Source: Eledone cirrhosa (taxonomy: Eukaryota). Taken from it: a DNA stretch of 64,000 nucleotides. The stretch is from positions 194,060,001 to 194,124,000 of the forward strand of contig OZ024743.1 in the NCBI GenBank assembly GCA_964016885.1, written 5' to 3'. The notes under the pieces were generated by a model. That model was not told the origin of the DNA. It saw nothing but the letters and a program-made list of their open reading frames with translations, and did no database searches. The translations under genes were made by a program, and so were the position numbers. Below, piece after piece: positions 5,604-41,486 of this stretch; the first letter of the stretch is position 1; each line of letters begins with the position of its first letter.

Positions 5604-5944
5604 ATAAATGGTTTAAACAGAACTTTGATTCATGTAATTTCTATATACACATATATATGTATATATATACTATATGTTGATTATCATATACGATTTATAT
5701 ATTTATTGATATTTTAATATTTAATATTTAATTACATATTTATATTTTCTCTCTTGCTTTGGACCAATAATTATGATAAACTACGTAATTATCAAGTCTT
5801 GTTAAAATATTTTTGTTTTCAAAGTGAAAATACAATAAATATTTATACTCCAAATGGAATATAGAGAAAAAGAGAAAAAGACTTGTTAATGAGAACATGG
5901 TTATTCTCATTTAAATTACACAACGCATGATACAATTGTTTCTG

Positions 5945-6153
5945 CTATAGACACATACCCACAATTTGAAGGGGAAGGGAAAGTCGATTAAATCGACCTC
6001 AGTCCATTACTGGTACTTTATTTATCGACCCCGTAAGGATGAAAAGCAAAACTAACCTCGGCAGGATTTGAACTCAGACCAGAAAGGGCCGTAACTCTAT
6101 GCCATGAAGCATGATGTCGGATGCTCTACCGATTCTGCAAATCGACCACCCTT
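5945..6153 (-). mobile_element. tRNA-derived SINE
   Basis: Same consensus as 750-1365. Confidence 0.85.
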
Positions 6154-6551
6154 CAACGTATAACATAATGTTGTTTTCTGGTAGGTTCATCGTCGATATC
6201 TATGATGATCATTCACTAGGTCGATGTGTATTCTATTGACGTGTGACAGCCGTTAATACTTACATTACCATATTTCTAATGAAATACACTCTATTTCAAT
6301 TAATTATATAATTAATTAAAAATTTGTATTGGTGTTCCGAAATAGTGATATCCAAGGCGGGAAGATATGTAATCTTGATAACCACTTTTAAGTCAGAAAC
6401 TGTGGCATCGTCGATTACTTCCCCTTGCTTTCACTGAAGCTAGGTATGTAATGATCGTTCCAACTTTAACATTTATAGCGAAAGGCCTTCCAAATGTTTT
6501 TCATAAACATCCCGTATATTATTAAATATACAATGCGTACATTATATATGC

Positions 6552-6733
6552 TGGATTGGCAGTATCGGTAGAGGGTCGGACGCCATGCTTTCCAGCATAG
6601 TTACGTCCCTTTACGATCTGAGTTCAAATCCCGCCGAGGTTGACTTTGCCTTTCATCCTTACGGGGTCGATAAAATAAAGTACCAGTAATGCACTGGATA
6701 ATTGCTGGCCTTGTGCTTAAAGTAGAAACAATT
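6552..6733 (+). mobile_element. tRNA-derived SINE (young variant)
   Basis: ggattggcagtatcggtagag...gagttcaaatcccgccgagg...gtcgataaaataaagtaccag; nearly identical to 30357-30533. Confidence 0.88.
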
Positions 6734-7164
6734 ATATATGCTTGCATTAATATTTTAGAAGGATTTGCTAAAGTTATGTACACTTTATAGAATACTATAT
6801 ATTCTCAAGAGTTCTAGTGAGTGAATCGCGAGAGAATTTAAGTGAAAGATAGGGGATAGGGGAGAGGGGAGAAAGGGAAAAGGGGAGTGAGGGTGAGTGA
6901 GAGAAATAGAAATAAAATATCTGACTGCAAAAACTGGATTGTTATTTCATTTATTGATTCTAAAATTATGAAAGGCAAAATTGACTTTGCTGAAATTTGA
7001 ACTAAGAGATTCGTATCGAAGTATTCTAGCAATGGTACCACTAGTCCGCCTTCCAATATTTAGTATAAAAACAACCTGAGTTACACACATACACACACAC
7101 ACACACACGAGCCCACACACGCACGCACAAGCATATATATATATATATATATGTATACATATGC

Positions 7165-7560
7165 TTCGTTTTGGAATTTGTTTTGCGCGAGATTTCTTAT
7201 CTGAAATCGTGTGTTGAAACAGATATTGTTATACTTTTTATTTTGGTGGCGGTGGTGGTTATACTTTGGGAGGGTCATGCTACCAATAAAAACACACTTC
7301 AATTTTTCACTTCAATTTATCATAAATTTACGGTTGGCTGGTTGGTTCGATAACCGGAAGGTTGTTTATATATTGTCGAAGCTCTTTCGTCGCACATTCT
7401 CTGACCTCCCCAGTGACTAGGTTTTTATTTTGCGTCTCTTCTTTGTTCTGTCCGACACCATCTTGTTTTTGTGTGCTGTGTGTTGTGTGCTTAGTTTGCG
7501 CATCCGAGTGTGTGTGTGTTTATTTACTTGTCACTAGTTGGTTGTTTGTTTTCTGTTTAA
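7165..7560 (-). mobile_element. Degenerate Penelope-like solo pLTR with decayed hammerhead
   Basis: Homologous to 43860-44317; hammerhead core mutated (CTGGGGA) at ~7373-7418. Confidence 0.8.
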
Positions 7561-13400: not shown

Positions 13401-13681
13401 AGCACCACCAACTTACTTTCTGGGTCCAGGAAGATGGCCCGTATGTCGAGATCCAAACCGAAAAAGCACAGCAACTCCACCCGCCGATCCAGGACGGCTG
13501 GGAGATGCGTACACATCGTAGCCGCCGAAGATCGGTCGGAGGCTCGTGCTTCGGAGATTCTGGTCTCGCTGATCGCCACTACATCTATGTTTAGTGACCT
13601 GAGGTCGTTGAGCAGGTGACCCTGCTTCCATGACGACCCCAAGCCACGCGCATTTATGCTGCCTATTCTGAGTGAGGTCAT
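10415..13681 (-). pseudogene. Tx1 copy A ORF2 (APE endonuclease + RT + C-terminal Cys-His motif), frameshifted
   Basis: SINARGL, SET, VYAP, GDWN (APE); KSPGLDG, FRPITLLN, LDQSKAFDRV, YADD (RT); CPRC..ET..HALVQC. Confidence 0.93.
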
Positions 13682-15642
13682 GTTGAAATGTAGTGGAAAA
13701 GATGGGAAAGACCACTTACCTTACTCCTCGTAGAGGAATGATGGTTTTTCCATTCTTTTCACTGCTTGTGGACTTCTCCGGAAGGATGTTCTTATAAATC
13801 CTCCTGGAGAGTGCTTGTCGGAAGTCTCCGATGTCTTTGGGGAATTTTTGTTTTAGTGTCGTGTACCTTTTCTGCGTGATTCGAGTGATTTGTATGTGTG
13901 GAGGTGGTGTGAACTTTTGGGTTGTTGTGTAGTCTTTTTCTGTGATGCTGGTGTTGTGTTGGATGTAGTGTAGTAATTAGTTGTTGTTCAAATTTAATGC
14001 TGTGTAGTGTGTTTCGGTTCGGTTGTTTTGTTTTGTTTGCGTTTGTTGTGGGTTAGTTTCTGTTTCGCTTTTAGGTGACTTTTGTGGTGTTGGTGATGGT
14101 GGTGTTAGGGTTAATGATGGTGATGGTGTTGGTGTTTGTGGTGATGGGGTTGGTGATGCTGGTGTGGATGGTGGCATAGCTGTCCTAACTTTTTTGTTTG
14201 ATAGTTTATTTGTTTTCCTCTCTATTTTGTTTTGGAGGGGGGAAGGAAAAGGATTTTTTCTTTTTTGGTTTCTTTTTTTCTTTTTTCCTGATACCGTTTC
14301 CCACTCCTCGTCGTCACAATCTGTCTCCAGTTGCGATAGGTCGGGGAGTGGAAAATCCTCCACAGGCGTTGGTTTTGGTTGTGGCGTGGTGGATGGTGTA
14401 GGCGCTGGTGTTTGTTCTGGCGCGTTGGGTGGTGGTGGTGCTGGCTTTGCTACTGTTGCTGGGGTTGTTGCTGTTACAGTTGCTTCTCTTGTTGCTGCTA
14501 CAGTTGTTGCAGCCATTTGTGCTGCTGGTGGTATTGATGGTTGAGTCACTGGGGTGGGTAAGAGAGGTGGCCTCAACCTTTTAGCCTGAGGGCAGATAGC
14601 CCTTAGGTGGGTTCCTTCACCACAAACGACACACCTAGGCCTTCTGCCCTCGACGATTACGGTGAGGTGGCTGCCGTCAGTGTGGTCTATTACATCTGGG
14701 ATCTCCTCAATGCTTTTTTGGTCTGCTTGGATCAGGAGCTCCATCCCAGATCTGGACCAGTTCTCCTGCTTTTCTTTCGCTATTTCGATTATGTTGGTGT
14801 TGGCTTCGATGCCGGCGAGGACGGCAGCCATTAGCCAGGGAATTTCGATGGCCGGTGGAACGTGGGTCACCCTGATCTTCACGAGTCTCTGGCCACAATA
14901 GCTTGGGACGAGTGTGAAGTCGTCATTTCTTAATGGGGCCATGGAGTGTTCTCTGGCCTCCTGTGGTGTTTCAAAGAACACGTCCACGGTTCCATATTTC
15001 TGCCCACGTCTGATGTGATTTTTTTTTGCCCACACATGTCCCAAAGCTTTTTGGATTTGGGACTCGGATGCCCGTTCCACTCGGCGCGATTTTATGTTAA
15101 TCGTCCGATAAGACACGGTGCATAGGCGCCGATGCTCCATTTTATTAATTGGGTGTGTGTGTGGGGTGTGGGGGGGGGGGAGGCTGGCTGACCCTGTACC
15201 CATCTTTCTTTACCATTCTTATGGCATTCTAATTCCTCCTGAGTTACCTGGAATGCTTCGCACTTTTTTCTACTCTGGCAAAAGACAGGGTGGTTTTCTT
15301 AATTTCATTGTTGCTGTTGTCGTTATCGTTATTTTTGTTATTGTTAATTTTAGTTTCAGTTGTGGTGGTGGTGGTGTCAGTGGTGTTCGCTGTGGTAGAG
15401 TTCATTTTGGGTGAATTCATTTCGATATCACGAGATAATCTATTTTTTTCTTTTGTTTCTGTTGTCGCTGTGGTGGTGGTGGGGGTGGCGGCTTCAACAC
15501 CTGCAGTCATTGGTAATGGCGGGAAATGAATGTCTGCCTGAGACAAATTCAAAATATTGCTACTGCTTATATTTTTAGTGTTGGCAAACGCAGTAATATT
15601 TACTGTTAGTTCGTGAGGAAGATGTAACTCTGAGTCGTCCAT
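13678..15642 (-). pseudogene. Tx1 copy A ORF1 (gag-like, CX2CX4HX4C knuckle, Pro/Thr-rich tail), disrupted
   Basis: CVVCGEGTHLRAIC in ORF 13977-15203; homologous to ORF1 of copy B. Confidence 0.85.
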
Positions 15643-17199: not shown

Positions 17200-20148
17200 T
17201 TCGTTTGTTCGTCTACAGCGTGATAATGCCACACAAAAATCACGTGGAGTGACGAAATCACCGGAGGTGATGAAATCACCGGTGGTTATGTAACCATACA
17301 TTTGCCAATCCTCGATAAGAGTGTTTAAATGTCGAACCTAAACAGTTCGAATAACGGTGAAATGGAGACTAGAATGTCATGTGACAGACTCTCACCCAAC
17401 AGGTGCTCCCTGGCTCAGCAGCAGGGACCTGGCTGTCAACCAAATACTGCTGGTGTCGGAGGAAGAAGAAGAAGGAAAGGGACTAGAACCAACTGGACGA
17501 AAGAATTGAATAGAACTATTATGCAATGTTACCTGAAGAGTAACCCCAAGTAGAAAGGCTATAGGAAACGGATGCATAACATCTGGAACGAGATTGGTCT
17601 ATTTAAATTAGATGAACACAAATTGGCCGGGCAGGCTCGGGTAATAAGAACTAATGGGTGGATAAGCGAGCTGGAACTGGAGGAACTGAGCAGAGAGATT
17701 AGCTTGGAGATGGAGGGTGGAGTATGTCAAGCAAACGAGCCAGTGGGAAATGAAGGTGAAGAGGTCGAGAGAACGGAGGAACCACCCGAAGCAGACAATG
17801 ATCTGAATGCTGAGATAAATAATACCTGGAACAGAGATACGGCCACTGGGGAGATGAATGCTGACGGGCTAGGACAAGATTTGGTTGATATCCTAAACTT
17901 AGTGGTAGATGAATTGAACAATGATAGTGGGAGACCGATGAACCTAAGATTTGTAGACAGGAAAAAGTTAAAAGAAACAACAGCTAAGGTAAACAAAGTC
18001 ATCCCAGACCTTGAGGCGAGGAGCCTTCACCAGTGCAACAATATCCTCAAAGCAACAGCAAATACGGTGAGGAAACTACTTGGTATAAAAGCGAGAGGAA
18101 ACAACAGACAAGAAAGAGCAAAGCCTTGGTGGAAGAAACGACTGAGTGGTCAAATCAGGGAAATGAGAAATGACATTGGAAAGCTTGAGTCCATACTGAA
18201 TGGGACACTAAAAAACATAGAAACTAAAAATAGACTGGAAATAGAGTACAAAACTAGGAGGAAAAAGCTAAATATTATCATAGAGGAACTGAAGCAACGC
18301 ATTGTAGCAAAGAGTGCAAAAATCAGGCGATACGAGAACAGAGTCAGTCAGTATAGACAGAACCCCATGTTCGACAACAACCAGAAGATGCTGTTTGGAC
18401 AACTTGAAGGGAAAGAAAGAGGCAACGACTTGAGTCCTGAGGCGGAACAAACTAAAACATTCTGGAGAGGAATATGGGAGCAGGATGTTAAACATAATGA
18501 CCAGGCAGTGTGGATTGAGACAGTACAGAAGTAGATTAGTGAATAGGCACACCAACAAACTGATTTGAGTATCACAGTTGAACCTCTTAAGGGGCAGGCC
18601 AAAAAACTAACCAACTGGAAATCACCAGGCCCAGATGGTGTGCAGGGGTATTGGATTAAAAATATAACATCCCTCCACCCGAAACTGTCAACCATGTTCA
18701 ATGACTACTTGATGTCAGGTGAGGTACCAGAGTGGTTGACAAAAGGTACCACAGTTCTGATAAAGAAAGACCAAATCAAGGGTAATGATGTTACCAACTA
18801 TAGATCTATCACATGTCTGTCCGTAATGTGGAAACTGTTGACAAGCATTATGTCTGAGGAAATCTACCATCACCTCCACACGAACAACTTGTTACCGGAC
18901 GAACAGAAAGGATGCCGAAAGAAGTCACGTGGTACAAAGGACCAGTTACTTATTGATAAGATGGTAATGAGGAATTGCAAGAGGAGGCACACTGGTCTTG
19001 CCATGGGATGGATAGACTACAAAAAGGCATTTGACATGGTGCCTCATTCTTGGATCACCAAAAGCCTGGAGATCTTCAAGGTGGCAGATAACATCAGACA
19101 GTTGTTGGGCAAAAGTATGAAGTCCTGGGAAACAGAGTTAACATCAACTGGAGAATCCTTGGGAAGCGTGAAGATCAAGAGGGGTATATTCCAGGGAGAT
19201 AGTCTGTCCCCTCTGTTGTTTGTCCTTGCCCTGATGCCACTGACCAGTGTACTGCGAAAAGTGAGAGCAGGATACAGGTTGGGAAAGGGAGGGCTTACCA
19301 TCAATCACCTCCTCTTCATGGACGATCTTAAGCTCTTCGGGAAGAGTGAGAAGGAGTTGGATGTGCTTGTTGACACTGTCCGTATTTTCAGCAATGATAT
19401 ATGTATGCAATTTGGTATTAGTAAGTGGGGAGTCATTGTGATGAAGAAGGGTAAGTTGAGCAGAAGTAACGGAATCCAGGTACCAACAGGTGAGATGATA
19501 AAGGAAATTGACACTGAAGAAGGATACAAGTATTTGGGTGTTCTGGAGGCTGATGACATCAAGAACAAAAAAATGAAGGAATTGATAAGAACTGAATACA
19601 TTCGGAGAGTAAGGAGCGTATTAAATTCACATCTCAACAGTAGGAATGCCATAAGTGCAGTAAATTCCCGAGCTGTGTCTATTATTAGGTACAGTGCGGG
19701 AATTCTGAGATGGAATGTTGCTGAACAAAAAGAAATGGATAGGAAGACTAGGAAGCTATTGACTATCTACAACATGTTCCACAAGAGGAGTGATGTCGAT
19801 AGACTCTACTTAAGGAGATCTGAAGGTGGAAGAGGTCTTATCAGCATAGAGGACTGTGTTCAGATGGAGAAAAACAACCTACACAAATACGTGACCGATA
19901 GTAAGGAGCCAATGCTCAGAATTGTACTGAAGGAGAGGACAATAGACCAGGGGATGTCCTAGGAGGAAATAACAACGAGGAGAAAGAGCAGCCTTCAGGA
20001 AAAATCCCTTCATAGTACCTTTTTTGAGAAAACTGAATTTAGAGATCCACAGATATGGAACTGGTTGAAAAGAGGAGACCTTAAAAAGGCTACAGAAGGA
20101 ATGTTAATGGCTGCGCAGGAGCAGGCCCTCAAAACGAAGTGGTTGAAA
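17200..20148 (+). mobile_element. R4/Dong-clade RLE non-LTR retrotransposon copy 1 (5' part, in-frame stops, 3' truncated)
   Basis: N-terminal WTKE..MQCY..S.P..KGYRKRMHNIW domain; RT motifs WKSPGPDG, QKGCR, GTKDQL, DYKKAFD, QGDSLSP, LFMDD; 5' boundary approximate. Confidence 0.9.
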
Positions 20149-23100
20149 GCTGGGGAAAGCCGTGTCTAGCAAACGGAGACCACACCTGATCACCGTCGAG
20201 GGAGAGGTGGAGATGTCGTAGCCTGAGCGCGTGTCTCCGCATCATCAGCCACGACATTCCCAGCCCTCCACGTAGCGGGTGTTGACAGCAGATGGACTGC
20301 CTGACCATCGGAGCGCGTCCCTTCCACAAAAAGCGAAAGAGCAAACGCTCTAGCGCAGTCATGCGGGGCTTAGGACAAGGTACGACGGTCAGGCGGTAGT
20401 AGATGACGGACGCGATATACGCGTTAGCCATCTCCGCTCGACCTTTCATGGATAGATTCCTCTCGGCCCATTTCTGGGTGAGAGAAGCCACCCTACTCGT
20501 CACCTTTTCGCAGTTTTTGTCCGTCCGGATATCCGGACCGAACCAGCCCCGAGCAATTTAACTGGTCCGTCCGTCCAGCGCCCGACGACGTTGTTGGACG
20601 GCATGGACCTGCCTCTCCAGGAGCCGAGCTGCAGGCCCACTGATTTTTCCTGGTTGATCATTGCTCCTGTCACCGCTTTGTATTCTCTTAGTGTAGTGCC
20701 GATCGCCTCGATGTGTTTGGCGTTCGACACCACTACGGTGACATCGTCCGCATATGCTGACACGGATCTTCCGCATCCTAGTTCGCGCGGGACCCCCCTC
20801 AACGTCTCCAGTTTATGCAGTAATGGCTCGAGAGTCAATACGTACAAGAGGGACGAGAGGGGACATCCTTGGCGGACCGAGCGCATGATGTTGAACGGTT
20901 CCGAAAGGATGGCCGTTCACTCTCACAACAGAGCAGATGTCGCTGTGCATGGCAGCGATCCAGCCTCTGAAGACGGGCCCAAAGCCAGCCGCCCTCAGGA
21001 CTGCCGCTAGGTAACTATGGTCGACCCTATAGAAAGCTTTCGACTGATCTAAATTGATCAAGGACCCACCCGTGCCAGGTTCCCTAGCTACCCTCTCTAC
21101 GATGTATCGCATGAGGTGGAGGTTGTCATGGATGGATCTGTCGGGAATGGCGCATGTCTTCGCCTCTCCCACCAGACCACCAACGACAAGCGCCAACCTC
21201 TTTGCTAGCACCTTGGCCAAAATCTTGAACTCTTTGTTTAGCAGAGTTATGAGCCTGAAATTATCTATGTTATCCCCTTTGTTCGAATCCTTTCTCAGCA
21301 ACGCCAACGCTCCTCGGCTCACAGAGCTGGGAATTCTCCCGTTCTGTTGCCAGTTGCAGTAGACGTCCGCCAAGAGGCCTCCGAACAAGTCTGGCATCTG
21401 TACGTAAAGTTCATAGGGCAGACCATCCAAACCAGGCGATTTACCTCTTGTGCATCCATTCATTGCCTCCCGTACCTCAGCGGCTGTTATCGGCTTTTCG
21501 CAACATTCCGCCTCAGTGGCCGAGAGCCGCGGCAGTCCCTCGAGGTAGACACTAAAGTCCATCCCTCGATCCGGCTCGCCACTGCCTCTGCACAGTTGAG
21601 CGAAGTGTCGCTGAAAAGCTTCACACATTTGCCCGGGATCGAGTAGCATGCGCACGTCGTGGTCCACCAAAGACCGGATCGTGGCTTGTTGCCACGACGC
21701 GCCTCCGCCACTCGGGCCCATTGAACGGCTTTCGTGCCCTCGTGTCTGAGAACACGCACCCTAGCTCTGACAACGCAGCCTTCGTGCTTTGCATTGAAGA
21801 ATTGGTCAAGGGCCAATTTCGCCGCAAGTACGTCGGTCGCGATGCCTTTGCCCAAGCGCCTCGTCTATTTCCCTCTGCTCTATTTTTCTCTATTGCTAAA
21901 GCCTTACTAAACCTAATGGACTCTATTCTAATTGCTCTTTTCAGAGCAAACCACCACTTGTTGTTGACGATGGCCCCCGTCATACGCCCGCTTAACTAGT
22001 TCGCTAATCCAGTCTCTGTAGTCCTTGCGCGCTGCTAAGGACGCGTTTAGCTTCCAGTAGCCGGGTCCTCGTCTATGAAGCCCATCTAAGTCAAGTACAT
22101 AGATCACGAATTAGTGGTCCGTGTAGCTGACTATCTTGAATTGTGGACAGCCTATGCTAGACCTATCTATTTCTCTACAAAATATTCTATCTAGATATGA
22201 TCTGGATGACCCGATACGATTTGTCCAAGTCCACATTGGCACACTCGGGAAATGCAATCGGTACCTGTCAGACAGTTCAAAACGCCTGAGCAAGTTGGTG
22301 AGGCTCTTGCACCCTCCTCCCCATACGCTAATCCCACACAGTCCCAGCGTGCATCTAAGATCCCGTTCCAGTCGCCCACTAACACTAAAGAGCGGGACGT
22401 TCCAAGAAAGATCTCCAGACGCCGGAAGAAATCAAGCCGCCCTGCTCCTGTCGGGGCATAGACGGCCACTAGCCTGAAAGCTTTCCGTCTCCGCTGGTCA
22501 CGTCTAGCACCACCAACTTACCCTCTGGGTCCAGGTAGATGGCCCGTATGGCGAGATCCAAACCTCTCCGAAAAAGCACAGCAACTCCCCCCCCCCCCGA
22601 TACCGGACGGCTGGGAGATGCGTACACATCGTAGCCGCTGAAGATCGGTGCGAAGGCCCGTGCTTCGGAGATTCTGGTCTCGCTGATGGCCACTACATCT
22701 ATGTTTAGTGACCTGAGGTCGTTGAGCAGGTGGCCCTGCTTCCATGACGACCCCAAGCCACGCGCATTTATGCTGCTTATTCTGAGCGAGGTCATGTTGA
22801 AATGGAGCGGAAAAGATGGGAAAGACCACTTATCTTACTTGATCGTCTGGTGAAGGGATCGTTGAAAACGCCCCTTCGGCTCGTCGTCGGCTCTTCTGTG
22901 AGTATAACCGAATATACCCTCCGGTTGAGTGTCCCTCCTAGGTCTCTAAAATCACCAACTGCTTTGAGGAATTTCGTTTTAATGTTTGTGTATTGTTTAT
23001 GTGCTATTTTTACCAATCTTATGTTCGTTAGTGTTTTGATTGGTGCTGGTATTATGTAGTCGTGCTGTGAAATGTCTTTGTGTTCAATTATATAAGTCAT

Positions 23101-25121
23101 TAATTTCTTGTTGTGTGTATTTATTGCTGTGCATTTGTTTTTCTGGGGGTGGGGTGGGGTTCTGCTATTTTCTTGTCGTTGTTGCTGGGTGTGTGTGTTT
23201 TGTTGTGCTTGCGATGTTGGTGCTTGTGGTGGTGGTGTTGAAGGTGTTGTTGTTGTTGGCGGTGGGGTTGCCGCCGGTGGTGATGGTGGTGCTAGTGTTG
23301 GTGTTGGTGGTGTTGCTGCTGTAAATCTTTTTGAAGTAGCCTTTACCCTTTTTTCGTTTCTTTCCTCCTTTTTCGAAGGCGACGATGCGCTGCTTCTGCG
23401 TTTGTGCCTTCTTGCGACCTTTTTCCACCCCTCTCCCACCTCACACTCCATGTCCGATTCTGTGAGGTCGGGGAGGGGTACCAGCTCCACTCTTTCACTT
23501 GTTGTTGTTGGTGATGTTTGCAATGGAGTCTCTGTTGCAGCTGCAGTTGGTATTGCTGTTGTTGTTGTTAATACTTCAACTGCTGCTGCTGTTCTTGATT
23601 TCCGTGGCGTGGGTATGAGTGCCAGGGACCTATCCTTCCTGGTTGCCGCCTATCCTGTTTCTGGTAGCAGTGGAGCCGGTTTCGGAAGGAGGGGGGTTTT
23701 CTCCTTTCTCAGGGTTTTCTCATTGCAGAAGGCCCTGAGGTGAGTCTTCGATCCACAGCGAAAGCATTTCGGGCGTTTGCCCTCAACACTTTTAGGCAGT
23801 TGAGTGCCGTTATCGAAGTCTTTCACATCCGGGATAGCTTCGATGCACTCCTGGTTGGTTTGGATTAACATCTCAATGGAGGTGCCGACCGAATCTTCTC
23901 GTGCTTTTTTCTGTACTTGCAGTACAGTTGTTTTGTCCTCGATTCCGACGAGGACAGACTCGGCCAGCCAAGCAGGGGGCATCCCGAGGGGGGGGGGGGG
24001 GTCACGTGGGTAAGTTTGACCCTCACAATTTTTCGTCCGCAGTAGGAGGGCACCAACACCATTTCCTCACTTCTTAGGGTCACTAAGGATTGAGCCTTTG
24101 CCTCCTGGGGTGTGGCAAAAAGCACGTCTACGGTGGCATATTTCTTGCCTCGGGTGATGTGCGTTTTACGCTGCCACACAGACCCTAAGGCTTTTTTGTA
24201 TTTGAGCCTCTGTGGCCCTTTCAACCCTACGGGAATTTGTGCTTACTGTACGGTACGTGAGCGTACAGTGCTGTTGGGTTTCGAAAGATTTTTCGGCTAC
24301 CTTACAGATTGCTCGGTGTCCGGTTTTCGTCACCATCTTCTTTGCTTCCTGTAATTCTTCATTTGTTATAAGGATGGTTTCCAGGTTCTTTGCGATACCT
24401 GCAAACGAGATTGGTTTTTCTTTGTTGTTGTCGTTGTCGTCGTCAGAGCTGCTGTTACTTTTGTTGTTGCTGCTGATACTACGGCTGCCGCCGCCGCCGC
24501 TGTTGTTGTGGTTGTTGTTCTTGCTGCTGCTGTTGTTGTTGCTGTTGCTGCTAATGCTGTTGTTGTTTATGCTGCTGCTGATGCTGTTGCGGCTGCTACT
24601 GTTGTTTTCCTTGTCACTGTTGTTGCTACTGCTATTATTCATGACGTCAGACGAATGAAATTGGTTTTCGTATTTACCGCACACCTTTTTCGTCGTTGTC
24701 GTCGTCGTGGAGAAATGTTCCACGTTTTGCACATGATTTTGGAAACTATTTTTCTTTACTGGCGTCGCTTGCGAAAGAGAAGGCAGGGAGAGAGACACAT
24801 TTAAAGAAGGGAGGGAGAGAGACAATCTTCTCTCTGGTGTAGTGACGATTGAGGAAGAAGACGGAATGAGTGGGAGAGACTTGTGAAAATTCTTTTTTGT
24901 AGCCATGTTTTTTTTTGGTTTAAAATAAATATTGGGCACAAAACCCCAATAAGCGGTCATTTAACCCCGAAGAGCTAAATAACGGGAAGAAAGACCCCTC
25001 TCACGAGGAGGAGGGTATTTTTGTCTACAATTTGGTTAAAGTTTTAAACAATTTACAATTATTATAGCGGCTAAAATTTACAATACCTTACAGAGCCGAG
25101 CCTCCGTCAACCATGGCATTC
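20149..25121 (-). mobile_element. Tx1/L1-clade element copy B (3' truncated), 5' end abutting (AAT)n
   Basis: ORF2 fragments 20129-22795 closely match copy A; ORF1 fragments 22792-24960 with CFRCGSKTHLRAFC. Confidence 0.92.
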
Positions 25122-25157
<36 letters not shown>

Positions 25158-25159
<2 letters not shown>

Positions 25160-27117
25160 CCGAATCAAGAGTAATGATGTTACCAACTATAGACCTATCA
25201 CATGTCTGTCCGTAATGTGGAAACTGTTGACAAGCATTGTGTCTGAGGAAATCTACCATCACCTCAACACAAACAACTTGTTACTGCACGAACGGAAAGG
25301 ATGCCGAAAGAAGTCCCGTGGTACAAAGGACCAGTTACTTATTGATAAGATGGTAATGAGGAATTGCAAGAGGAGACACACTGGTCTTGCCATGGGATGG
25401 ATTGACTACAAAAAGGTATTTGACATGGTGCCTCATTCTTGGATCACCAAAAGCCTAGAGATCTTCAAGGTGGCAGATAACATCAAACAGTTGTTGAGCA
25501 TTATACTGCGAAAAGTGAAAGCAGGATACAAGTTGGGAAAGGGAGAGCTTACCATCAATTACCTCCTCTTCATGGACGATCTTAAGCTCTTCGGGAAGAG
25601 TGAAAAGGAGTTGGATGTGCTTGTTGACACTGTCCGTATTTTCAACAATGATATATGTATGCAATTTGGTATTAGTAAGTGTGGAGTCCTTGTGATGAAG
25701 AGGGGTAAATTGAGCAGAAGCAACGGAATCCAGGTACCAACAGGTGAGATGATAAAGGAAATTGACACTGAAGAAGGATACAAGTATTTGGGTATTCTGG
25801 AGGCTGATGACATCAAGAACAAAAAAATGAAGGAATTGATAAGATCTGAATACATTCGGAGAGTAAGGAGCGTATTAAAGTCACATCTGAACAGTAGGAA
25901 TGCCATAAGTGCAGTCAATTCCCGAGCTGTGTCTATTATTGGGTACAGTGCGGGAATTCTGAGATGGAATGTTGCTGAACAAAAAGAAATGGATAGGAAG
26001 ACTAGGAAGCTATTGACTATCTACAACATGTTCCAGAAGAGGAGTGATATCGATAGACTCTACTTAAGGAGATCTGAAGGTGGAAGAGGTCTTATCAGCA
26101 AAGAGGACAGTGTTCAGATGGAGAAAAACAACCTACACAAATACGTGACCGATAGCAAGGAGCCAATGCTCAGAATTGTACTGAAGGAGAGGACAATAGA
26201 CCAGGGGATGTCCTAGGAGGAAATAACAACGAGGAGAAAGAGCAACCTTCATGAAAAATCCTTTCATAGTACCTTCTTTGAGAAAACGGAATTCAGAGAT
26301 CCACAGACATGGAACTGGTTGAGAAGAGGAGACCTTAAAAAGGCTACAGAAGGAATGCTAATGGCTGCGCAAGAGCAGGCCCTCAAAACGAAGTGGCTGA
26401 AACACCATATTTACAAGGAGGAGGCTAGCCCACTGTGCAGGATCTGTGGAGAGAGAGAGGAGACTGTGGCTCACATTGTATACGAGTGTAAACACCTAGC
26501 CGAGACTCACTATAAAGGCTGGAGACATGATGTGATGGGCAGGGTGATCCACTGGCACCTATGAAAAGTAAACAATTTACCACATTCTGAGAAGTGGTAT
26601 GAGCATAAGCCAGAGTCGGTGATAGAAAACGATCGGGTGAAGGTGCTGTGGGATTTTAGGATACAGACGGACAAGAAACTGGAACACAATAGACCTGACC
26701 TGGTGGTTTTGGACAAGGAAAAAAAATCGTGCCTGATTGTGGATGTAGCCTGCCCATTCGACACGAGAGTGCAAGAGAAGGAGAGGGAGAAAATTAACCG
26801 ATACCATGACTTAAAGTGGGCGGTAAAGTGGATTTGGAACTGGCATGAAGTCAAAGTTTTCCCGATTGTCATAGGCGCACTAGGTACTATCTCAAAGAAT
26901 TTCCAAGGATGGTTAAAGAAAATTAGTCCCGCCCCGCTTTTTGGAACACTTCAAAATGCATGCTTGCTGGGAACAGCAAGAACCCTCCGATAGGTCCTGA
27001 ATATCTGAGGCTGTAGGTAGTGGCTTGATATTCATTTCAACAAACTTTCCAGTTAACTAACATCAATGACTGAGACTCAAAGAACATTAATAATAATAAT
27101 AATAATAATATAATAAT
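25158..27117 (+). mobile_element. R4/Dong-clade copy 2 (5' truncated, internal RT deletion, intact 3' end with (TAA)n tail)
   Basis: RT LFMDD; CRIC..ETVAHIVYEC knuckle, RHD, LWDF, HNRPDLVV..IVDVACP..KE.EKI.RY restriction-like endonuclease; (TAA)n on both sides. Confidence 0.93.
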
Positions 27118-29861: not shown

Positions 29862-30309
<448 letters not shown>

Positions 30310-30356
30310 TTATATAGTGGATAAAGTTCACGTACTTTTTGTTCATTATTATGTTT

Positions 30357-30533
30357 TCAGTATCGGTAGAGGGTCGGACGCCATGCTTTCCAGCATAGTT
30401 ACGTCCCTTTACGATCTGGGTTCAAATCCCGCCGAGGTTGACTTTGCCTTTCATCCTTACGGGGTCGATAAAATAAAGTACCAGTAATGCACTGGGTAAT
30501 TGCTGGCCTTGTGCCTAAAGTAGAAACAATTAT
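30357..30533 (+). mobile_element. tRNA-derived SINE (young variant)
   Basis: Near-identical to 6560-6733. Confidence 0.88.
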
Positions 30534-30731
30534 TATGTTTTATTTAGTCGACGACGCTAGAAATAGCAGTCAAATCTCTCAAATTATAACCAACCTTTTT
30601 TAAGCACATTGGGTTATATAGACATAGACATCCTAAAAGACTGGGATGCTTTTCACCATAGTTTTATTTGATCATTGTTTATATGAACAAAACTATTTTC
30701 TACAAATACTACTGCCATTACCACAACCACC

Positions 30732-30805
<74 letters not shown>

Positions 30806-31517
30806 ACCATAACACTTCAGTGTCATCTTGCAGTCCCACTTATTCAAATAATGTCGCTACCACCACCATCAACACCACCACCACCATATCACCACCATCA
30901 CCCCCTTTATCATCACACTACACTTTTCTGCACCACAATACCCTCAATGTGGTCCCCTATCAAGCTCCACTTCAGTTCACTTCAATAATCCTTCCCTCGT
31001 AAATATTTCTGTCTATATTGTTCTGAGAGAATGTAGAATGTATAAAGCTGTGGAAATAAGATCTGGTCCCTAATACAGGTGGATGACCTCACACACCACT
31101 GTAATGGCATTAAAATATCTCATTGTTGTAAGGGGAGAGTTGTTCTATTGAAATTCATCCAAGCGTAAACCTAGCTGACTCACCTTATCTGCGCAGTCTC
31201 CGTTTACTGCATGTACCTATAAATCTTTCTCCCTTCCTAGGAAAAAGAATGTCTGTTTTCTCCGTTAATCTAAATAATTAATATTATTCGGTGACATCCT
31301 GTTTCCCCTGGTTAACATACATTTAAACGGATTAATATTCTTAGCCTACTTCAACAATTTTAGACAGAATAATTATTATAAAAGTGTTTCGTGTTTGTAT
31401 TTAGAAGTTAGGGGAAGATTTGTGAGAATCAAATATTAAATTTCCTTAGTTGTCCATGTTTGGTTTTAAACAATAGCATTCCTTGATCCAATATACTTAT
31501 CAAGGTTTCGAGACTTC

Positions 31518-32789
<1,272 letters not shown>

Positions 32790-32790
<1 letters not shown>

Positions 32791-33345
32791 ATATATTATA
32801 AAGTAAGAAGAAATATTAGACATAAATAAATACCTATTTCTTTCTTCAAATTCCCGACTGTACAGTTTCGTGGCTACTATGCAAACATTTTACATCATGG
32901 AGATGCAACATTTCTGTGAGGTATGCCGACTTTTCAAGGGAACACCTCAGGGAAAGAACCATTTCAAACAGGTCTGCATCGAGTAAGAAAATCTCGAAAA
33001 GGCGGAGGGAAACACTATCACGTGATACAGTGGTCGAGATACTCTCGCGCGATGCAGACCTGTTTGAAATGGTTCTTTCCTTGAGGTGCTCCCTTGATAA
33101 GTCGGCATACCTCACAGAAATGTTGCATTTCCATGATGTAAAATTTTTGCATAGTAGCCACGAAACTGTACAGTCGGGAATTTGAAGAAAAAATAGGTAT
33201 TTATTCCTTCTTACTTTATAATATATTACATAGCTCTGATATCGAGTCAATTTAATTATTCCGATTATCTTGTCTCACATAATCATAGAGCAACACTGGT
33301 TAAGGTCGACAACACACAATCTCACATACTTGTGAAAAAATATGT
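32790..33345. mobile_element. Palindromic mini-element with mirror-image U3-A8 hammerheads
   Basis: Arms ~32790-32981 / 33050-33228 are reverse complements; right-hand extension to ~33345. Confidence 0.88.
33089..33180 (+). ncRNA. Type I hammerhead, U3-A8 core variant, long stem II (mirror copy 32851-32942 on minus)
   Basis: (c/t)tccc-TTGA(T/A)AA-gt.ggc...gccac-GAAA-ctgtacag-TC-gggaa; 10 nt palindromic stem III ACTGTACAGT, GUC site at 33173-33175. Confidence 0.8.
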
Positions 33346-33420
33346 CTATATATGCATGTATATGTATGTATACACGTGTATTTATGTACCTCTCATTAGT
33401 GTGTATATATATATATATAT

Positions 33421-33527
33421 ATATCCAAAATTAAATTAAGGGTGTCATGTGTGTCAGACTGCAGAATACGCTCAAAGATTCGAATGAATAGATCCGAGCA
33501 TTTTATATCAACTAGAAATTGATTGAC

Positions 33528-33564
<37 letters not shown>

Positions 33565-33800
33565 AAATAAACATATGAAACAATCACAGGGAATAATTTG
33601 TAAAATGTGTAAGCACACACAGCTAGGTAGCTAACCAATTAAAGTTTAACTAGAACTTCAACTGTGATTGTTTCATATGTTTATTTTATACATATATGTC
33701 AATCAATTTCTAGTTGATATAAAATGCTCGGATCTATTCATTGGAATCTTTGAGAATATTCTGCAGTGGATATGGCGCTTAATTTAATTTTGGATATATA
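33421..33800. repeat. Inverted-repeat element (arms ~33421-33590 / 33662-33800)
   Basis: gaatagatccgagcattttatatcaactagaaattgattgacat is the reverse complement of atgtcaatcaatttctagttgatataaaatgctcggatctattc. Confidence 0.88.
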
Positions 33801-33939
33801 TTAATTGTAGAGCTAACTCAGTTGAATTGACTCGGCTGCTATTTCTAGCTGACGATAATCCTATTCACGCCACTGGGATGACGGTGGTACGATGTGTGTA
33901 TTTAAAAAAAAAATGCAACACGTGTTGCAAGTCATTCAC

Positions 33940-33979
<40 letters not shown>

Positions 33980-33992
<13 letters not shown>

Positions 33993-34868
33993 TGTGGTTG
34001 TCTGTCTGTCTATCGAATTTTGGCACACATCTCCTCTTAGAATCTCTCACGGAATTGCACCGAAATTGGTATACTTGTACATTGAGCCCTAGCGAAGACA
34101 TCGGAAAAAAAAATTTCAAATTGACCCGCCCTATGTGACGAAATCGAATATAATGTATCGATTTTTGAGCGTAAGTGATCAGTTATTTCCCTTTGTTCTG
34201 TTTACATTGAGCGTCTGCGTGCAAAAATTAAAAAAATTACGCTGGCTTTCTCAGCGTTTAAAATGGCATTAACACAATACACGATTTAAAGACTACGTAA
34301 AACAAGCCTTTTAAAACAATATTTTTACTTGAAAACAAGTCTATTTAAAAACTACTTAAAACAAGCAAATATTTCGTAAAAAAAAGCAAAAATTATATAA
34401 GTTTATATAAAATATATGTATCTGTAAATTTCGTTAGGCGTGCAGACAGACAGTCGTGCAGAGAGGTGATATAGGCGTGCAGACAGACAGTCGTGCAGAG
34501 AGGTGATATAGGCGTGCAGACAGACAGTCGTGCAGAGAGGTGATATAGGCGTGCAGACAGACATAACTGATAATTTGGTTACGCTAATGTTTTTCTCTGC
34601 GTTGCAGTGTTTACATTTTCGATCTTTGTTAATAAATAACCAGTGCAGTTTTTATCCCCAGCATCCTCTTTTGTTATAACATTCGGGTTATCGTTATGTT
34701 TTCTTAACTTCATAAGGCATATTGTTGGTTGAGGGAATATTAATAAAAAACACCACATGCAAGTCTGCACAGTAGACACTACAGTTTTTAAGCCAAGAAA
34801 GAAACTTAACATTGTAACTTTAACACAGCTACTGAGCGACCCCGAGCAACGCCGGGCTTTACTGCTAG
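33980..34868 (+). mobile_element. Non-autonomous Helitron with internal 37 bp tandem repeat (34436-34560)
   Basis: 5' tatatataaaa..gtctgtctgt start; 3' hairpin cccgagcaacgccggg followed by CTAG at 34865-34868. Confidence 0.75.
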
Positions 34869-36064
34869 TATGCTATAAAATTGACGGCCGTATGTAGGTA
34901 ACAAACTTTCCGCCAAACGGCTGGACCAAACAACATCAAATTTGCACCATAGATGTAACTTTTTCCAAGTAAAAAAGTGAGGGTATTTTTGTCTACTGAA
35001 TTTTGTTAAAAGATTAAAGACATTATTTAAATATACACTTCTTTAAAATTTCAACTGTCAACACTTCCGGTTATACGTAATTCCTCACTTTTTCTTATAA
35101 CGTCCGTCGCACAACATTCCCCTCTTTCTCTTAGTCTGTCTTTTTAGATAGATACATAGCTATAACGTAGCGCCCTTATAATATGTCTCTGTATGACTGA
35201 CTGTCTGCATTAGCTAACGTTTTTCGAAATATTTACTTCTGCGTTCACAGACGTATTTTTTAAGTTTCAGAAGAACCTGTTAAGGGTGAAAGCAGCGATT
35301 CTTTGCTTAAACTTTAATATGTTATTTTAATATATATATTCGTGTACAGATATTTTTGCATACACAAAAACAAAAACCTATTTATTTCACGAAAGCACAG
35401 ACGGCTTATCGTCATTGTTACTGTTCGTGGCTAAGAGGACCACAGTCTTTCCAAGTGGAACATTGATGGCCAAAGATCTGAGAACAATCAATGGCCATCA
35501 ATGTTCCACTTACCGTTTGGCTTACCAGGTGCATGGTATGTTACACGATGACAGCCATTGGCACCCCACCCTGCAAGAAACAGCAACTGCTAAAATCCCT
35601 TCTCAGCTGCGAAAACTTTTTGCTATTATGCTGCACAACTGCGATCTCGCCGACCCGCTCACACTGTGGAACAACCACCGTGAAGTCTAGCTGAGGACAT
35701 CCTCCACCGCACACGCAGACACAATCTAATTTTAAATGAGGCGCTCATTTGTCTTGAAAACAGTGTCCTGGAGATTGGTGGTAGGCCTCTAAGTCACTAC
35801 AGCTTACCTGCTCCTGACAGGATTGTCCAGAGTTCCACGTCTACAGAGCTTCTCCGTGAGACGAGCTACGGTCAAGTGATTCTCCCATGGTCAATTGTAT
35901 GTAGTATGCTCTAGGGTGAGCTAACCAAGCAATCTCTTCATCTTTGCTCTGGAGGGCCGAACAAAAAATATTGTATACTCTGAGGCTCTAACAATGTAAT
36001 TCTGTAATTTTGGTTTTCTTCACTTTTTTAGAATCCTGGTGATAAGGGCAAAACGAGAAGCTAG
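34869..36064 (+). mobile_element. Internally deleted Helitron with RepHel remnants
   Basis: DLRTINGHQCSTYR..GMLHDDSHW..TL....PSQLRKLFAIML..C...P..LW linker; SHGQLYV.CSRV..TKNIVYSEAL helicase C-terminus; ends CTAG at 36061-36064. Confidence 0.85.
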
Positions 36065-36883
36065 TGAAGATATAAATGTCGGCAAAGCTAATCTAACAAG
36101 GAGCGAAAGCAGTCATATCTAACTGGAAGGGTGGATTGTGATCATCCAATATCGTTGAACTGATTGTTAGATACCTCTTACGCACCACACCCGACGGAAT
36201 GTTCGAATTCAGTAAGACAATATGTCTGATTATAAAATGTGTGTGGAATGCTGCGGAAATAATACGACAGTTTTGGCATTTATCTTTGGCAGGAAACCCA
36301 CTGTGCCTATTGCAAGCTGACGATTTTTAACCCAATTTTGCTCTTAAAGTACTTGAAGCCTAATTTAACGCGTATTCAGACGTGTAAGGATGATGCACAT
36401 GAATTTATTCAAGGCCTCCGAGACTGGTGGGAGAAAATTATCTACAGATCCAAAATATAGTCACATTGCATGTAACAGAACATACTCCACTTTCTGTAGC
36501 TAAGGACCAGATGGTCTTAACCTAAACCACGAATTAGGTTTACCAACCAAGAACAATTCCCATAGATTCCGCCAACCAAATTTTATTCAAAAGGAGTTGG
36601 TTGACAGGAGGGTTGTAGGACATTTACTGAAAATCGTTCGCATTGAAATCGAAACCAACATCATGCCGTTACAAAGTTTCATCTTCACACTTATTCATGA
36701 GAGGATGGTGGGGCGGGCTTAGACGTCCGACATTATTTTACGTGTACTAACAAAGGACGCATTCAGGCATTAGATTAAGGAATTATAAACAGTCCAAAGT
36801 TTAATCCAACCATAGTAATATATGTAGAATAAGGAAAATGCCATGTTCGGTGTAGATGCTACAAAGATTTTTTTATTAACAAA

Positions 36884-37155
36884 GCTGTGATACATATTTC
36901 AATGGTGACTTTTTCAATCATATATCCAGTCGCTTGATATCAGACAACATCTTATGTAATATGTTTACGTTTCCGATACAATCCAATCTACAGACAAGGG
37001 AACAGATAGAAATGATGTTTTCTGTCGGTTCCCTTGTCTTTTGATCATAGACGTAGCCTTATTACATAAGGTACTGCCTGATGATATCGCGCGACTGGTT
37101 ATATGATTAAATAATCAGGTAGCCCCGATTGCCAATGGAATACATATGACAGCCG
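36884..37155. mobile_element. Old degenerate member of the 31601-32017 palindromic hammerhead family (duplicated at 41530-41800)
   Basis: gctgtgatacatatttcaatg at 36884; cctgatgatatc..ggaatacatatgacagc at 37077-37153; shared spacer ctgt..ttcccttgtc. Confidence 0.7.
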
Positions 37156-37204
37156 AACTTATCTAGCTTGCATTTGCGTTGAGAACTTATTTATTTAATA
37201 TGTG

Positions 37205-37236
<32 letters not shown>

Positions 37237-37331
37237 CGTGCGTGTGCGTACACGCCCGTATATATATACATGCGCTAAACCGATTCTGTTTACCTTTTAC
37301 ATATATATATATGCATATATATATATATATG

Positions 37332-37363
<32 letters not shown>

Positions 37364-37506
37364 CGTAATATAATAAGCCAAGGATTGGTATATCAAATCC
37401 TTTTAAATCATTTGATTTATATATGCTCTGGGAAATTATAGTATTATTATGGTTAGAATTTACATATTGGGTGAGGCCTTGAAATATCCTTGGTTGAATA
37501 TTGTTG

Positions 37507-37572
<66 letters not shown>

Positions 37573-37573
<1 letters not shown>

Positions 37574-37757
37574 ACGAAGGAAATGTGGTAAGGAACCAGG
37601 TGGACCATAATGCACCAAAGTACTCAATACTTAAGGTAGTAGAGTGGGTAATAGGAACGAGTAGGACCCCGACGGCTGAGCTCAAGCCGTTTCGACGGCT
37701 AATTCTGGAATTAGCCGTCGAAACGGCTTGAGCTCAGCCGTCGGTGTCATACTCGTT

Positions 37758-37762
<5 letters not shown>
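37573..37762. mobile_element. Fold-back pLTR end in (TA)n (112 bp hairpin plus ~78 bp one-sided extension)
   Basis: gacggctgagctcaagccgtttcgacggctaatt-ctgg-aattagccgtcgaaacggcttgagctcagccgtc; homologous to 59131-59262 and 60775-60828. Confidence 0.88.
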
Positions 37763-37796
<34 letters not shown>

Positions 37797-38798
37797 TTCA
37801 GTTAAAATAAGTTGGCATTAAACTGGCATCTTTGTATGTATGCATGTATGTATGTATGTATGTACTTTTTATTGAATGAGAGACTCCTAGCCTTTATTAA
37901 GACATCTCTCTAGGAGAAAGTCACTCTGATATAAAACCAGCGACGTCATTTGCATCCAATGATGTAGATCAATTCTACTTCTTGGGAAAATGCATTCGAT
38001 GTTCAGAGTGTGGGATTGCCCCCCTCCAGAACCTTTCCTCACTTAAAAAAGCTTCAAGCATAGGCATCGCTTGATATCTGACATTTTTTGCGTTGTATGG
38101 CCGTAAGAAAGACCCTATCAGGACTAAAATGCCATGTCCGTGATGCTCATGCTTAAGTATCAAGCGATGGCATTACACGAAATAGAGTTACAGCCATCAT
38201 GTATATATGTAAATGCGTGACGTCCAAACAAGTATCTTCCACCTCCAACTCCACCTTTACCATTCATCCTAGTTTGCTGGTTATAAAAGAAAACGTAAAA
38301 GAAATAGGAACAATTAAATAGATACAGTAAGGAAAAATGGGGAGGGAGTGGCAGTTTATATACTCTTGTTTAGGCGGTTACGCCCCGCGGATAGAATGGT
38401 GAAAGGAAACAGCAAGTGACACCACCAGAATCAGCCACTCTGTCACATGAGGTTGCTTCCTAAGGTGGAATATAGTCCTTGACAACTGTATATATATTTC
38501 ACATAGTGATCTATTTAATTGTTTCTAATTTTGGCACAAGGCCAGCAATTACGCAGTGTATTACTGGTACATTATTTAATCGACCCCGTAAGGATGAAAG
38601 ACAAAGTTAACCTCGGCGGGATTTGAACTCAACAGAAATATTCACTTTTGGTGATACCAATATTGCTTTGCTTTACTAAAGTAAAGAATTGATATCCCTT
38701 ATCTTTTCGAGAAGCATTTATACGATTTCATCGGATGTTATTATATACTTGCTATATATATATATATATACATACGCACACGCGCACACAAACACACA

Positions 38799-38889
<91 letters not shown>

Positions 38890-38892
38890 GTG

Positions 38893-38961
<69 letters not shown>

Positions 38962-39135
38962 AGGAAACCGTTTCATTTCAAACATGGTATATTGAAAACA
39001 TGACGCTTTTCAATATTATTTAGAATTCGATCATATTTCCTTATTAGTTGTTCGTGTTTGGTTTCAAACAATAGCATTCCTAGATCCAATATACTTATTA
39101 AGGTTTCGAGACCTTCACAGCCCCCCGCCCTCCCC

Positions 39136-39239
<104 letters not shown>

Positions 39240-39494
39240 TGAGAGAGAGAGATATGAAAGTCACTGTTGTAGTATGTACAAACTGTATTTGTATATATAT
39301 ATATATATATATATATATTTAAGTAGCAGCCGTACTAAGAGTGAGAAATGAAATTTCGTTTCATTTTTTCCGTTTATCGTTTTCGGTAACCCGGCCGATT
39401 AACTCACTCGATATGCAAATTAGGCTGCTCAGCCGTTAATCTGCATAAGGAAAGTATATACTTTCAGACGTTCAACAATCTGGCAGGAAGGTAT

Positions 39495-39537
39495 ACGTTG
39501 CTGACGATAGCTAATAAGCTTGAAACTAGTACAGCAT
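39495..39537 (+). ncRNA. Minimal type I hammerhead with U-U at the base of stem II
   Basis: gttg-CTGACGA-t-agct/agct-t-GAAA-ctag-TA-cagc; palindromic ACTAGT, GUA site. Confidence 0.72.
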
Positions 39538-39874
39538 TCCTTTGTCAGTGTTGAACAAATGAGCAACGATGGTTGCTAGACACTGTATGTCTTAATTCGG
39601 GATGTTTGTTTACAATCACACCGAGCATTATAATAAATTTTCGGTGAATCCATATGTACATGTATATATGTGTGCATGTATGTATATATGTATATATATA
39701 TACATACTACTGTACGCATGTATACATATATGTATGTACGTATACATACTTATATATATATATATATACATATATAGCGTCCGAAACCTTTAAGACCATC
39801 TTCCTGCTATTTCAAGCGTCAACCTAATATATTCCTTCCATATACTGTACCGATTCTGTTTACCTTCTACATAC

Positions 39875-39915
<41 letters not shown>

Positions 39916-40076
39916 TTAAACTAAGTTGAAAATACAACAATATTCAACCAAGGATATTTCAAGGCCTCATCCAATATGTAAATTCCAACCATAATAATAC
40001 TATAATTTCCCAGAGCATATATAAATCAAATGATTTAAAAGGATTTGATATACCAATCCTTGGCTTATTATATTAC

Positions 40077-40109
<33 letters not shown>

Positions 40110-40112
<3 letters not shown>

Positions 40113-41240
40113 TATTTTCCGTTGTGTTGTAATATAAATATTACACACAGTAGATTATCAGCTCACGTAGAGTTTGCTCGACGGTTCCAGTTGTAGTTCC
40201 AAAAGTAATCCGGAGAAAAATAGAAAGATTTGAATGGATACAGTTTAGTTGAAAGGAATTTATTGACACGTGTTTCTATAACAGTTACGTAACCTAAAAC
40301 AGCTGTTATCTACAAACTTTTAGTTATGTAGAAAAAGCTTGGACGCTCAGGGATAGCGATCAAAAGTTTACCCTAAAATGGGAGAAATTAGCTAAAACCC
40401 AAAGCTTTTCCAGGAGCCAAAATTTCTGCAAATTGTGTAATCTTGAGATTTATTACATAATCACACACAAGAAGAAACTGCTGAATAACAGAATTGAACG
40501 AACATTATTCTGCCGTCACAGAACTAAAACCCTTTTTTCCCACTACAAGCCGAATATTACATAAAAGAGGACTAGAGTATGTATGTATATATGTGTGTGT
40601 CTATACGTGTGTATATAAAGATAAGTTGAGTATGAAAATGTATACACATGAGCGCGTATGTATGTACATGAATACATGTGTGTATATATATGTGTATGCA
40701 TGTGTATATATATGTAAGTATGAATATGTGAATTGTGAGTATATGTATTTTGTAGAGGTGTGCAAATATATTTGTGTGTGAATGCGTGTGTGAAAGGATA
40801 CTTACACTTGAAAGAAAAATTTAAGTCTGAATGTTAATTAAGTGCAAACACAAAACCAACCACGCATATCTTTACTATCTCTAATCCTTCTATAGATTTA
40901 GAAAAATAACCAATAATATATTCTATAAAAAATGTCAAAACAACAGATGGGAATCTAATTACTCACTGCCACCAAGAATTCTCACTGCTATCGAAAAACC
41001 ACTCCTTCAACTATTCTTCTAACAACTTCACCCCTCCCTCCTAATATTCTCTATAAAAACTAAATAGGTCCTCAGTAATATTATTCTGATGAAATGACAG
41101 TAAATAATAACATTGAAATATTGAATGTCTGCATAACTAAAAGTTTGTAGATAGCAGCTGTTTTAGGTTACGTAACTGTTATAGAAACACGTGTCAATAA
41201 ATTCCTTTCAACTAAACTGTATCCATTCAAATCTTTCTAT
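40110..41240 (+). mobile_element. 5'-truncated Penelope-like element with inverted pLTR piece and GIY-YIG C-terminal remnant
   Basis: 40334-40530 translates KAWTLRDSDQKFTLKWEKLAKTQSFSRSQNFCKLCNLEIYYII..LLNNRIE..FCRHR; arms 40221-40332 / 41128-41240. Confidence 0.85.
41081..41200 (+). ncRNA. Type I hammerhead with ~90 nt stem II domain
   Basis: ttatt-CTGATGA-a-atgacagt...actgttat-a-GAAA-cacgtg-TC-aataa; perfect stem I, palindromic ACACGTGT, GUC site. Confidence 0.78.
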
Positions 41241-41292
41241 ATATATATATGTACGTATTACGTATGTAAAAGGTAAACAGAATCGGTTTAGC

Positions 41293-41328
<36 letters not shown>

Positions 41329-41387
41329 GGGCGTGTACGCACACGCACACACACACACATACACGCACACACACACACGCGCACACA

Positions 41388-41486
<99 letters not shown>

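Follow-up and report, generated by a model that had tools for sequence, protein, structure and literature searches.

Back-to-back truncated copies of a U3-A8 hammerhead retrozyme in Eledone cirrhosa, probably inserted by a Penelope-like element enzyme

Introduction

A palindromic stretch with two mirror-image hammerhead motifs lies in a 64,000-nt piece of the Eledone cirrhosa genome (contig OZ024743.1; this whole piece is called the window, and positions are counted from its first letter). The locus raises the question whether the palindrome is itself a working element, or whether its shape records how a different unit was inserted.

Hammerheads of this kind have a published background. A natural U3-A8 variant and pseudoknots in hammerheads were described by Perreault et al. 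(2011, PMC3088659), and Penelope-like elements (PLEs) of Schistosoma were reported to contain U3-A8 hammerheads (about 1,300 matches) and hammerhead pairs on opposite strands at distances of 100-700 bp, with activity in vitro being low (PMC4209133). PLEs are known to leave inverted 5'-truncated copies with one-ended tails of 30-40 bp and a bias for microsatellites, the formation of the inverted arms and tails being given as an open question (PMC8557442). For a PLE, reverse transcription (RT) has been shown to start at two internal sites and both strands to be nicked, with uncut RNA serving as the main substrate and a dimer being predicted (PMC11167929). Non-LTR retrozymes were defined and linked to PLEs (Cervera and de la Pena 2020, PMC7229834; 10.64898/2026.07.22.740005) and are regarded as PLE derivatives by Li et al. 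(2026, 10.64898/2026.07.22.740005), where only one of nine tested dimers cleaved. Hammerhead dimer cleavage is summarised in PMC6765202.

Results

Layout of the insertion

The palindrome consists of two truncated retrozyme copies lying back to back and is not the functional unit. The mirror symmetry was probably left behind by a two-ended insertion, carried out by the enzyme of a Penelope-like retrotransposon, and would not reflect a working self-cutting hairpin. The parts of the insertion are as follows:

32038..32789, no strand: (TA)n-rich tract at the left end, likely target
32790..33401, no strand: full insert, made of two copies of a ~591-nt retrozyme unit, each truncated on its 5' side and joined 5'-to-5', with (TA)n on both flanks
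32790..33039, minus strand: left arm, 250 nt, reference positions 411-661, with its end at site A (predicted cut +65 nt)
33034..33401, plus strand: right arm, 368 nt, reference positions 453-834, with its end at site B (predicted cut +240 nt)
33034..33039, no strand: 6-nt overlap of the arms, a microhomology with one mismatch against the family reference
33229..33401, plus strand: 173-nt "tail" that separates end site A from end site B, right arm only
33402..33425, no strand: (TA)n tract at the right end, likely target

The right arm carries a 13-nt deletion, 11 substitutions and 3 gaps separate the two arms over about 195 nt, and the apparent "loop" of the palindrome is surplus 5' length of the left arm. 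The host is an animal with a (TA)n-rich genome of 3.0 Gb. An initial annotation of the locus had given its extent as 32790-33345 with inverted arms of about 190 bp; the start and the inversion hold, while the insertion reaches about 33401 and its arms are unequal.

The hammerhead motif and its stems

Both mirror-image motifs described initially are present:

33090..33179, plus strand: type I hammerhead motif of the right arm, predicted cut after 33175
33090-33093/33176-33179, plus strand: stem I
33094-33100, plus strand: core UUGAUAA (U3-A8)
33101-33161, plus strand: stem II, 61 nt
33162-33165, plus strand: GAAA
33165-33174, plus strand: stem III, a 10-nt palindrome, with the predicted GUC cut at 33175/33176
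32851..32942, minus strand: type I hammerhead motif of the left arm, predicted cut 32856/32855
32937-32931, minus strand: core UUGAAAA (U3-A8)

Each arm thus has a UUGA(U/A)AA core, a 61-nt stem II, GAAA, a 10-nt palindromic stem III and GUC, and shows the type I features (core positions 3-9, G12-A13-A14, A15.1-U16.1, H17 and a Watson-Crick 3-8 pair). An Rfam scan of 30000-36000 gave no hammerhead match at E<=5; therefore a standard search overlooks the motif, as had been expected of searches based on CUGANGA. Taken alone, the 106-nt motifs show no folding advantage over shuffled sequences (z -0.55 and -0.75).

The U3-A8 pair, which had been interpreted as a compensatory swap, was found in 54/54 copies scorable by flank anchors at loci found by BLAST, a count in which the oldest subfamily was mostly unscorable, and in 31/31 where the query that retrieved the loci lay upstream of the hammerhead. 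Position 7 varies and is the only core position that differs between subfamilies.

Covariation among genomic copies, a check proposed with the initial annotation, was also observed. In 26 hand-picked copies scored on a hand-drawn structure of 25 pairs, 83.1% of the cells were paired, against 75.9% in shuffled controls and at most 52.8% in slid controls, and 14 of the 25 drawn pairs, in stems I and II, had changed on both sides; the copies are related and the structure was drawn from them, and these values are support and not a p-value. RNAalifold alone recovered only 8 pairs, all in upper stem II. In the L223 family, stem III has been altered to another perfect palindrome and stem I compensated.

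The predicted energy of stem III is +1.5 kcal/mol as a hairpin and -13.4 kcal/mol as a duplex. This stem would be unstable in the first form and stable in the second; the modelled energetics fit dimeric cleavage, in line with the suitability for dimers initially ascribed to the palindrome, which in L223 was changed and yet kept.

A further candidate contact connects the 5' flank of stem I with stem II:

33082..33086, plus strand: UGAGG, candidate 5' half of a stem I-stem II pseudoknot
33110..33114, plus strand: CCUCA, within an internal loop conserved in stem II, candidate 3' half

UGAGG lies about 12 nt before the core. Both halves are kept in 43/49 copies of the window copy's subfamily and in 12/15 and 39/48 copies of two others, and they are also visible in the oldest subfamily; in a family with a C3-G8 core, GGAAAA and UUUUCC occupy roughly the corresponding positions. 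This conservation suggests a stem I-stem II pseudoknot like those of other hammerheads. The pairing could instead be an alternative inactive hairpin, as in the fold of the left arm.

A family of copies built on a unit of about 591 nt

The exact core and stem III pattern gave 316 matches genome-wide against 0 for the reversed control and, at a shorter spacing, 36 against 1, so the hammerhead motifs are not due to chance. At least 316 copies with an intact core are present in the genome, in several subfamilies with identities down to about 62% and the same layout throughout. A first look with a 171-nt query had given 1,143 candidates, 40 of which were scored.

Direct repeats in partial tandems within loci give a period of about 590 nt. 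The monomer at L016 has 591 nt, 37% GC and a longest ATG ORF of 69 aa, and an ORF with RT plus GIY-YIG is absent from the unit. Folded as a circle, this monomer reaches z -4.8 against 40 shuffles, a value to which an AT-rich palindrome contributes. The family of the window copy includes head-to-tail copies in the form of partial tandems and two-hammerhead arms (L020, L023), and solo and direct-tandem copies are common in it as well; in the window copy's own subfamily, no array above about two units was seen. The repeating unit is therefore the monomer of about 591 nt and not, as first proposed, the palindrome, and we consider it very probable that this unit is a non-LTR retrozyme with PLE-type inverted insertions.

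A sister family with a C3-G8 core has the same stem III. The pattern scan linked to this family gave 16 matches against 916 in the reversed control, an uninformative count, and the C3-G8 pattern at 20-50 nt spacing gave one degenerate match. At L249 (G000:C3:352304500-352313500, 3000-7330), eight tandem copies of about 525 nt and an inverted arm belong to the sister family, with both ends of the array in (TA)n. Its seven full units hold 52 singleton and 7 shared variants, a star-like divergence, and the inverted arm differs from the array units by 0-6 of 235 nt. As judged from these variants, the array would fit several rounds of copying on one circular template, and equally a homogeneous source array. 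It was also observed that L249 has U-U at 10.1/11.1 and a GUU site together with its C3-G8 core, and it is possibly a weak ribozyme.

Two fixed 3' ends and variable 5' junctions

Copies end at two fixed 3' sites, A at +65 and B at +240 nt from the predicted cut. Among terminal cases, 94 were A ends and 63 were B ends, followed by (TA)n in 74/94 and 48/63, respectively. Foldbacks at loci L001-L151 had one A and one B end in 34 of 39 cases against 19.4 expected (p 1e-6); ends were classed by motif, this count omits pairs whose ends are separated by a long (TA)n tract, and the rows for L076, L096, L140 and L141 are probably mis-paired. Among loci selected on the hammerhead region only, the A+B pairing was found in 22/25. 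All 11 opposite-strand pairs among the matches listed (100 of 316) were of the minus/plus type with their 3' ends outward.

The 5' sides behave differently, as arm lengths and inner junctions differ in every foldback and the junctions are scattered over the unit. The predicted cut site is crossed intact by 67 of 70 copies, the other three beginning a few nt upstream; therefore the template was uncut or re-ligated RNA. In the same 70 copies there is no pile-up of 5' ends at the predicted cut site, and hence no direct genomic sign of cleavage.

A stretch of the form GT...polypyrimidine...AG, about 45-50 nt long, follows right after the cut site (window 33197-33233, plus strand; L016, 1039-1089). 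It is conserved between subfamilies and extends across end site A, and one may speculate about a likeness to the short introns retained in PLEs.

Autonomous Penelope-like elements of the same genome

The genome contains 10,596 GIY-YIG candidates, of which 50 loci (30 + 20) were examined. L228 is a near-complete PLE with direct terminal repeats of about 1.07 kb and a 938-aa frame encoding RT, a CxxxxCxxC linker and GIY-YIG; it is called Neptune-type from the linker, following PMC8557442, and not from a tree. Among the Neptune-type families, three have U3-A8 minimal hammerheads and one has C3-G8. These autonomous PLEs also end in (TA)n at two sites, with one short and one long end in 11/11 divergent pairs from the three families scored, two convergent neighbours having been set aside as separate insertions.

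This shared end behaviour would also be expected if the copies were 5'-truncated 3' ends (pLTR plus tail) of an unfound autonomous PLE, the unit not being independently mobile, and the small share of GIY-YIG candidates examined leaves room for such an element. We nevertheless regard this explanation as improbable. No long frame in line with the hammerhead was found among 120 loci; in 30/93 cases the sequence continues beyond end B into the part that precedes the next hammerhead, closing a non-coding unit of 591 nt; and subfamilies as distant as those described above retain the same layout. No PLE with a long-stem-II hammerhead was present among the 50 GIY-YIG loci, and no extended match of the retrozyme unit to PLE terminal repeats was found at the PLE loci examined.

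The similarity of end motifs between the retrozyme and the best PLE candidate was not significant (best p 0.064). The Neptune-type family N2 was considered as the partner, and its assignment was not significant. The window itself contains a truncated Penelope-like element in inverted arrangement with RT and GIY-YIG frames (43850-45820, minus strand, and 47842-49630, plus strand), in which a minimal hammerhead-like motif with a canonical core was seen by eye near 44120-44075 on the minus strand; it was rejected as an evident partner, as its hammerhead-like motif and its ends differ. A homolog search with its RT gave 69 relatives. In the Neptune-type terminal repeats of L234 and L243, the U3-A8 minimal hammerhead has GCAA for GAAA in all matched copies.

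A proposed route of insertion

Read from the DNA, the locus and its relatives present a unit free of ORFs, a family of copies, covariation in the stems, fixed 3' ends in (TA)n, the pairing of A with B ends and variable 5' junctions. With high confidence we interpret this as a dispersed non-LTR retrozyme of about 591 nt, inserted back to back, likely by the RT/GIY-YIG protein of a Neptune-type PLE. The earlier suggestion of a retrozyme-like small element mobilised by PLEs agrees with the inverted truncated arms, the one-ended tail and the (TA)n targets.

In the proposed sequence of events, tandem retrozyme copies would be transcribed, their hammerheads would cleave as dimers via the palindromic stem III, and the monomers would be ligated into circles. 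The PLE protein would then nick both strands of a (TA)n target, priming one cDNA at the internal site A and a second at site B; both cDNAs would stop early and be joined at a microhomology. The resulting foldback would be a dead end for cleavage, with the antisense arm pairing with the ribozyme.

The last point bears on the proposal that the palindrome is the functional unit, its hairpin RNA from either strand cleaving itself near the 3' end. The core is intact on both strands and foldbacks are common in the family; even so, we hold this to be very unlikely. The predicted cost of imposing the hammerhead fold is 3.6 kcal/mol on a single arm but 128.6 kcal/mol on the foldback, and a foldback transcript would, on this model, bury the ribozyme as the antisense arm pairs with the sense one. 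The second hammerhead is antisense and therefore provides no dimer partner, but would sequester the sense motif instead, and the 3' termini are 65 and 240 nt beyond the cut site. Arm lengths and junctions that vary in every copy, and the frequent solo and direct-tandem copies, also speak against it. A MITE or foldback DNA transposon at TA that resembles a hammerhead by chance would account for inverted arms and TA-rich targets but is scarcely credible, given termini A and B that differ in 34/39 foldbacks and so form no terminal inverted repeats, ragged inner ends, covarying stems and subfamilies differing in the core at position 7 alone.

Discussion

The retrozyme insertion described here is no novel type of system, since elements of this class are already known, as are U3-A8 cores and hammerhead pairs on opposite strands, the latter two from Schistosoma PLEs (PMC4209133); the novelty first attributed to the locus was overstated. 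Like metazoan non-LTR retrozymes (PMC7229834; 10.64898/2026.07.22.740005), the family has a non-coding low-GC unit (37% here) with one type I hammerhead per unit, occurs as tandem and solo copies and is accompanied by PLEs, a likeness at the level of DNA sequence, expression as linear and circular monomer RNA (circRNA) being a trait of the known class. It differs in its length of 591 nt against a typical 170-400 nt (within the 51-972 bp range of Li et al.), in its mostly dispersed, truncated and inverted copies, and in having a U3-A8 core and a 61-nt stem II where the canonical form has 4-bp helix II loops.

The motif resembles the minimal hammerheads of PLE pLTRs, including the U3-A8 form of Schistosoma Cercyon, in being type I with a short helix I and a palindromic helix III, and in its opposite-strand pairs at the spacing cited above (PMC4209133). 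The insertion is built like those of the EN+ PLEs Neptune, Poseidon and Naiad (PMC8557442, PMC11167929): an inverted 5'-truncated copy is present, only one end bears a tail, the hammerhead is followed by two internal end sites, and targets are AT-rich or microsatellites. Unlike these PLEs, the retrozyme is non-autonomous and its tail measures 173 nt and not 30-40 nt. As in pseudoknot-stabilised hammerheads (PMC3088659), a Watson-Crick contact between the stem I and stem II regions is predicted, but here, in a hammerhead of the dimeric repeat type, the candidate contact would link the 5' flank of stem I with an internal loop within the long stem II. Within the literature covered by our search, we found no description of the long-stem-II form with a probable pseudoknot, of a 173-nt tail or of a counted end asymmetry; long-stem-II variants may already be in print.

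The value of these observations is mechanistic, as a non-coding passenger follows the same rule of one short and one long end as the Neptune-type PLEs of its genome, and retrozymes are thereby tied to PLE enzymes by an insertion signature and not by co-occurrence. They also add a hammerhead architecture that Rfam missed here, with a 61-nt stem II, a candidate pseudoknot and a 10-bp dimer helix. Tentatively, and with less than even confidence, we suggest that the copies record PLE integration by a dimeric protein with asymmetric priming on circular retrozyme RNA, each of the two target strands being primed at a different one of two internal RNA sites; this RNA would be processed by a dimeric U3-A8 hammerhead, the long stem II of which docks on the 5' flank through the pseudoknot. 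If true, this reading would bring tails on one end, inverted arms and multimers from rolling-circle copying under one explanation, and would offer a 591-nt substrate with a 173-nt tail for in vitro work.

Neighbouring repeats

Several other repeats were observed in the window and at further loci. An adjoining foldback at 31648-32017 carries a hammerhead-like motif with a CUGAUGA core and a long stem II on both arms, has its 3' ends outward and has related copies at other loci. Directly right of the retrozyme insertion, a foldback repeat lies in (TA)n (33417-33801); no hammerhead core was found in it by regex, and partial relatives occur in L101 and L170. At L246 (194-285, plus strand), a long-stem-II hammerhead-like variant has a candidate 12-nt palindromic stem III. 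Large inverted repeats of 1,274 and 516 nt with 95-96% identity are located at 35999-42711 and 59207-60828. Nested, broken frames of non-LTR retrotransposons lie at 10415-15209, 17554-19962, 20129-23649 and 25068-26993, and the two that were tested both match Pfam RVT_1.
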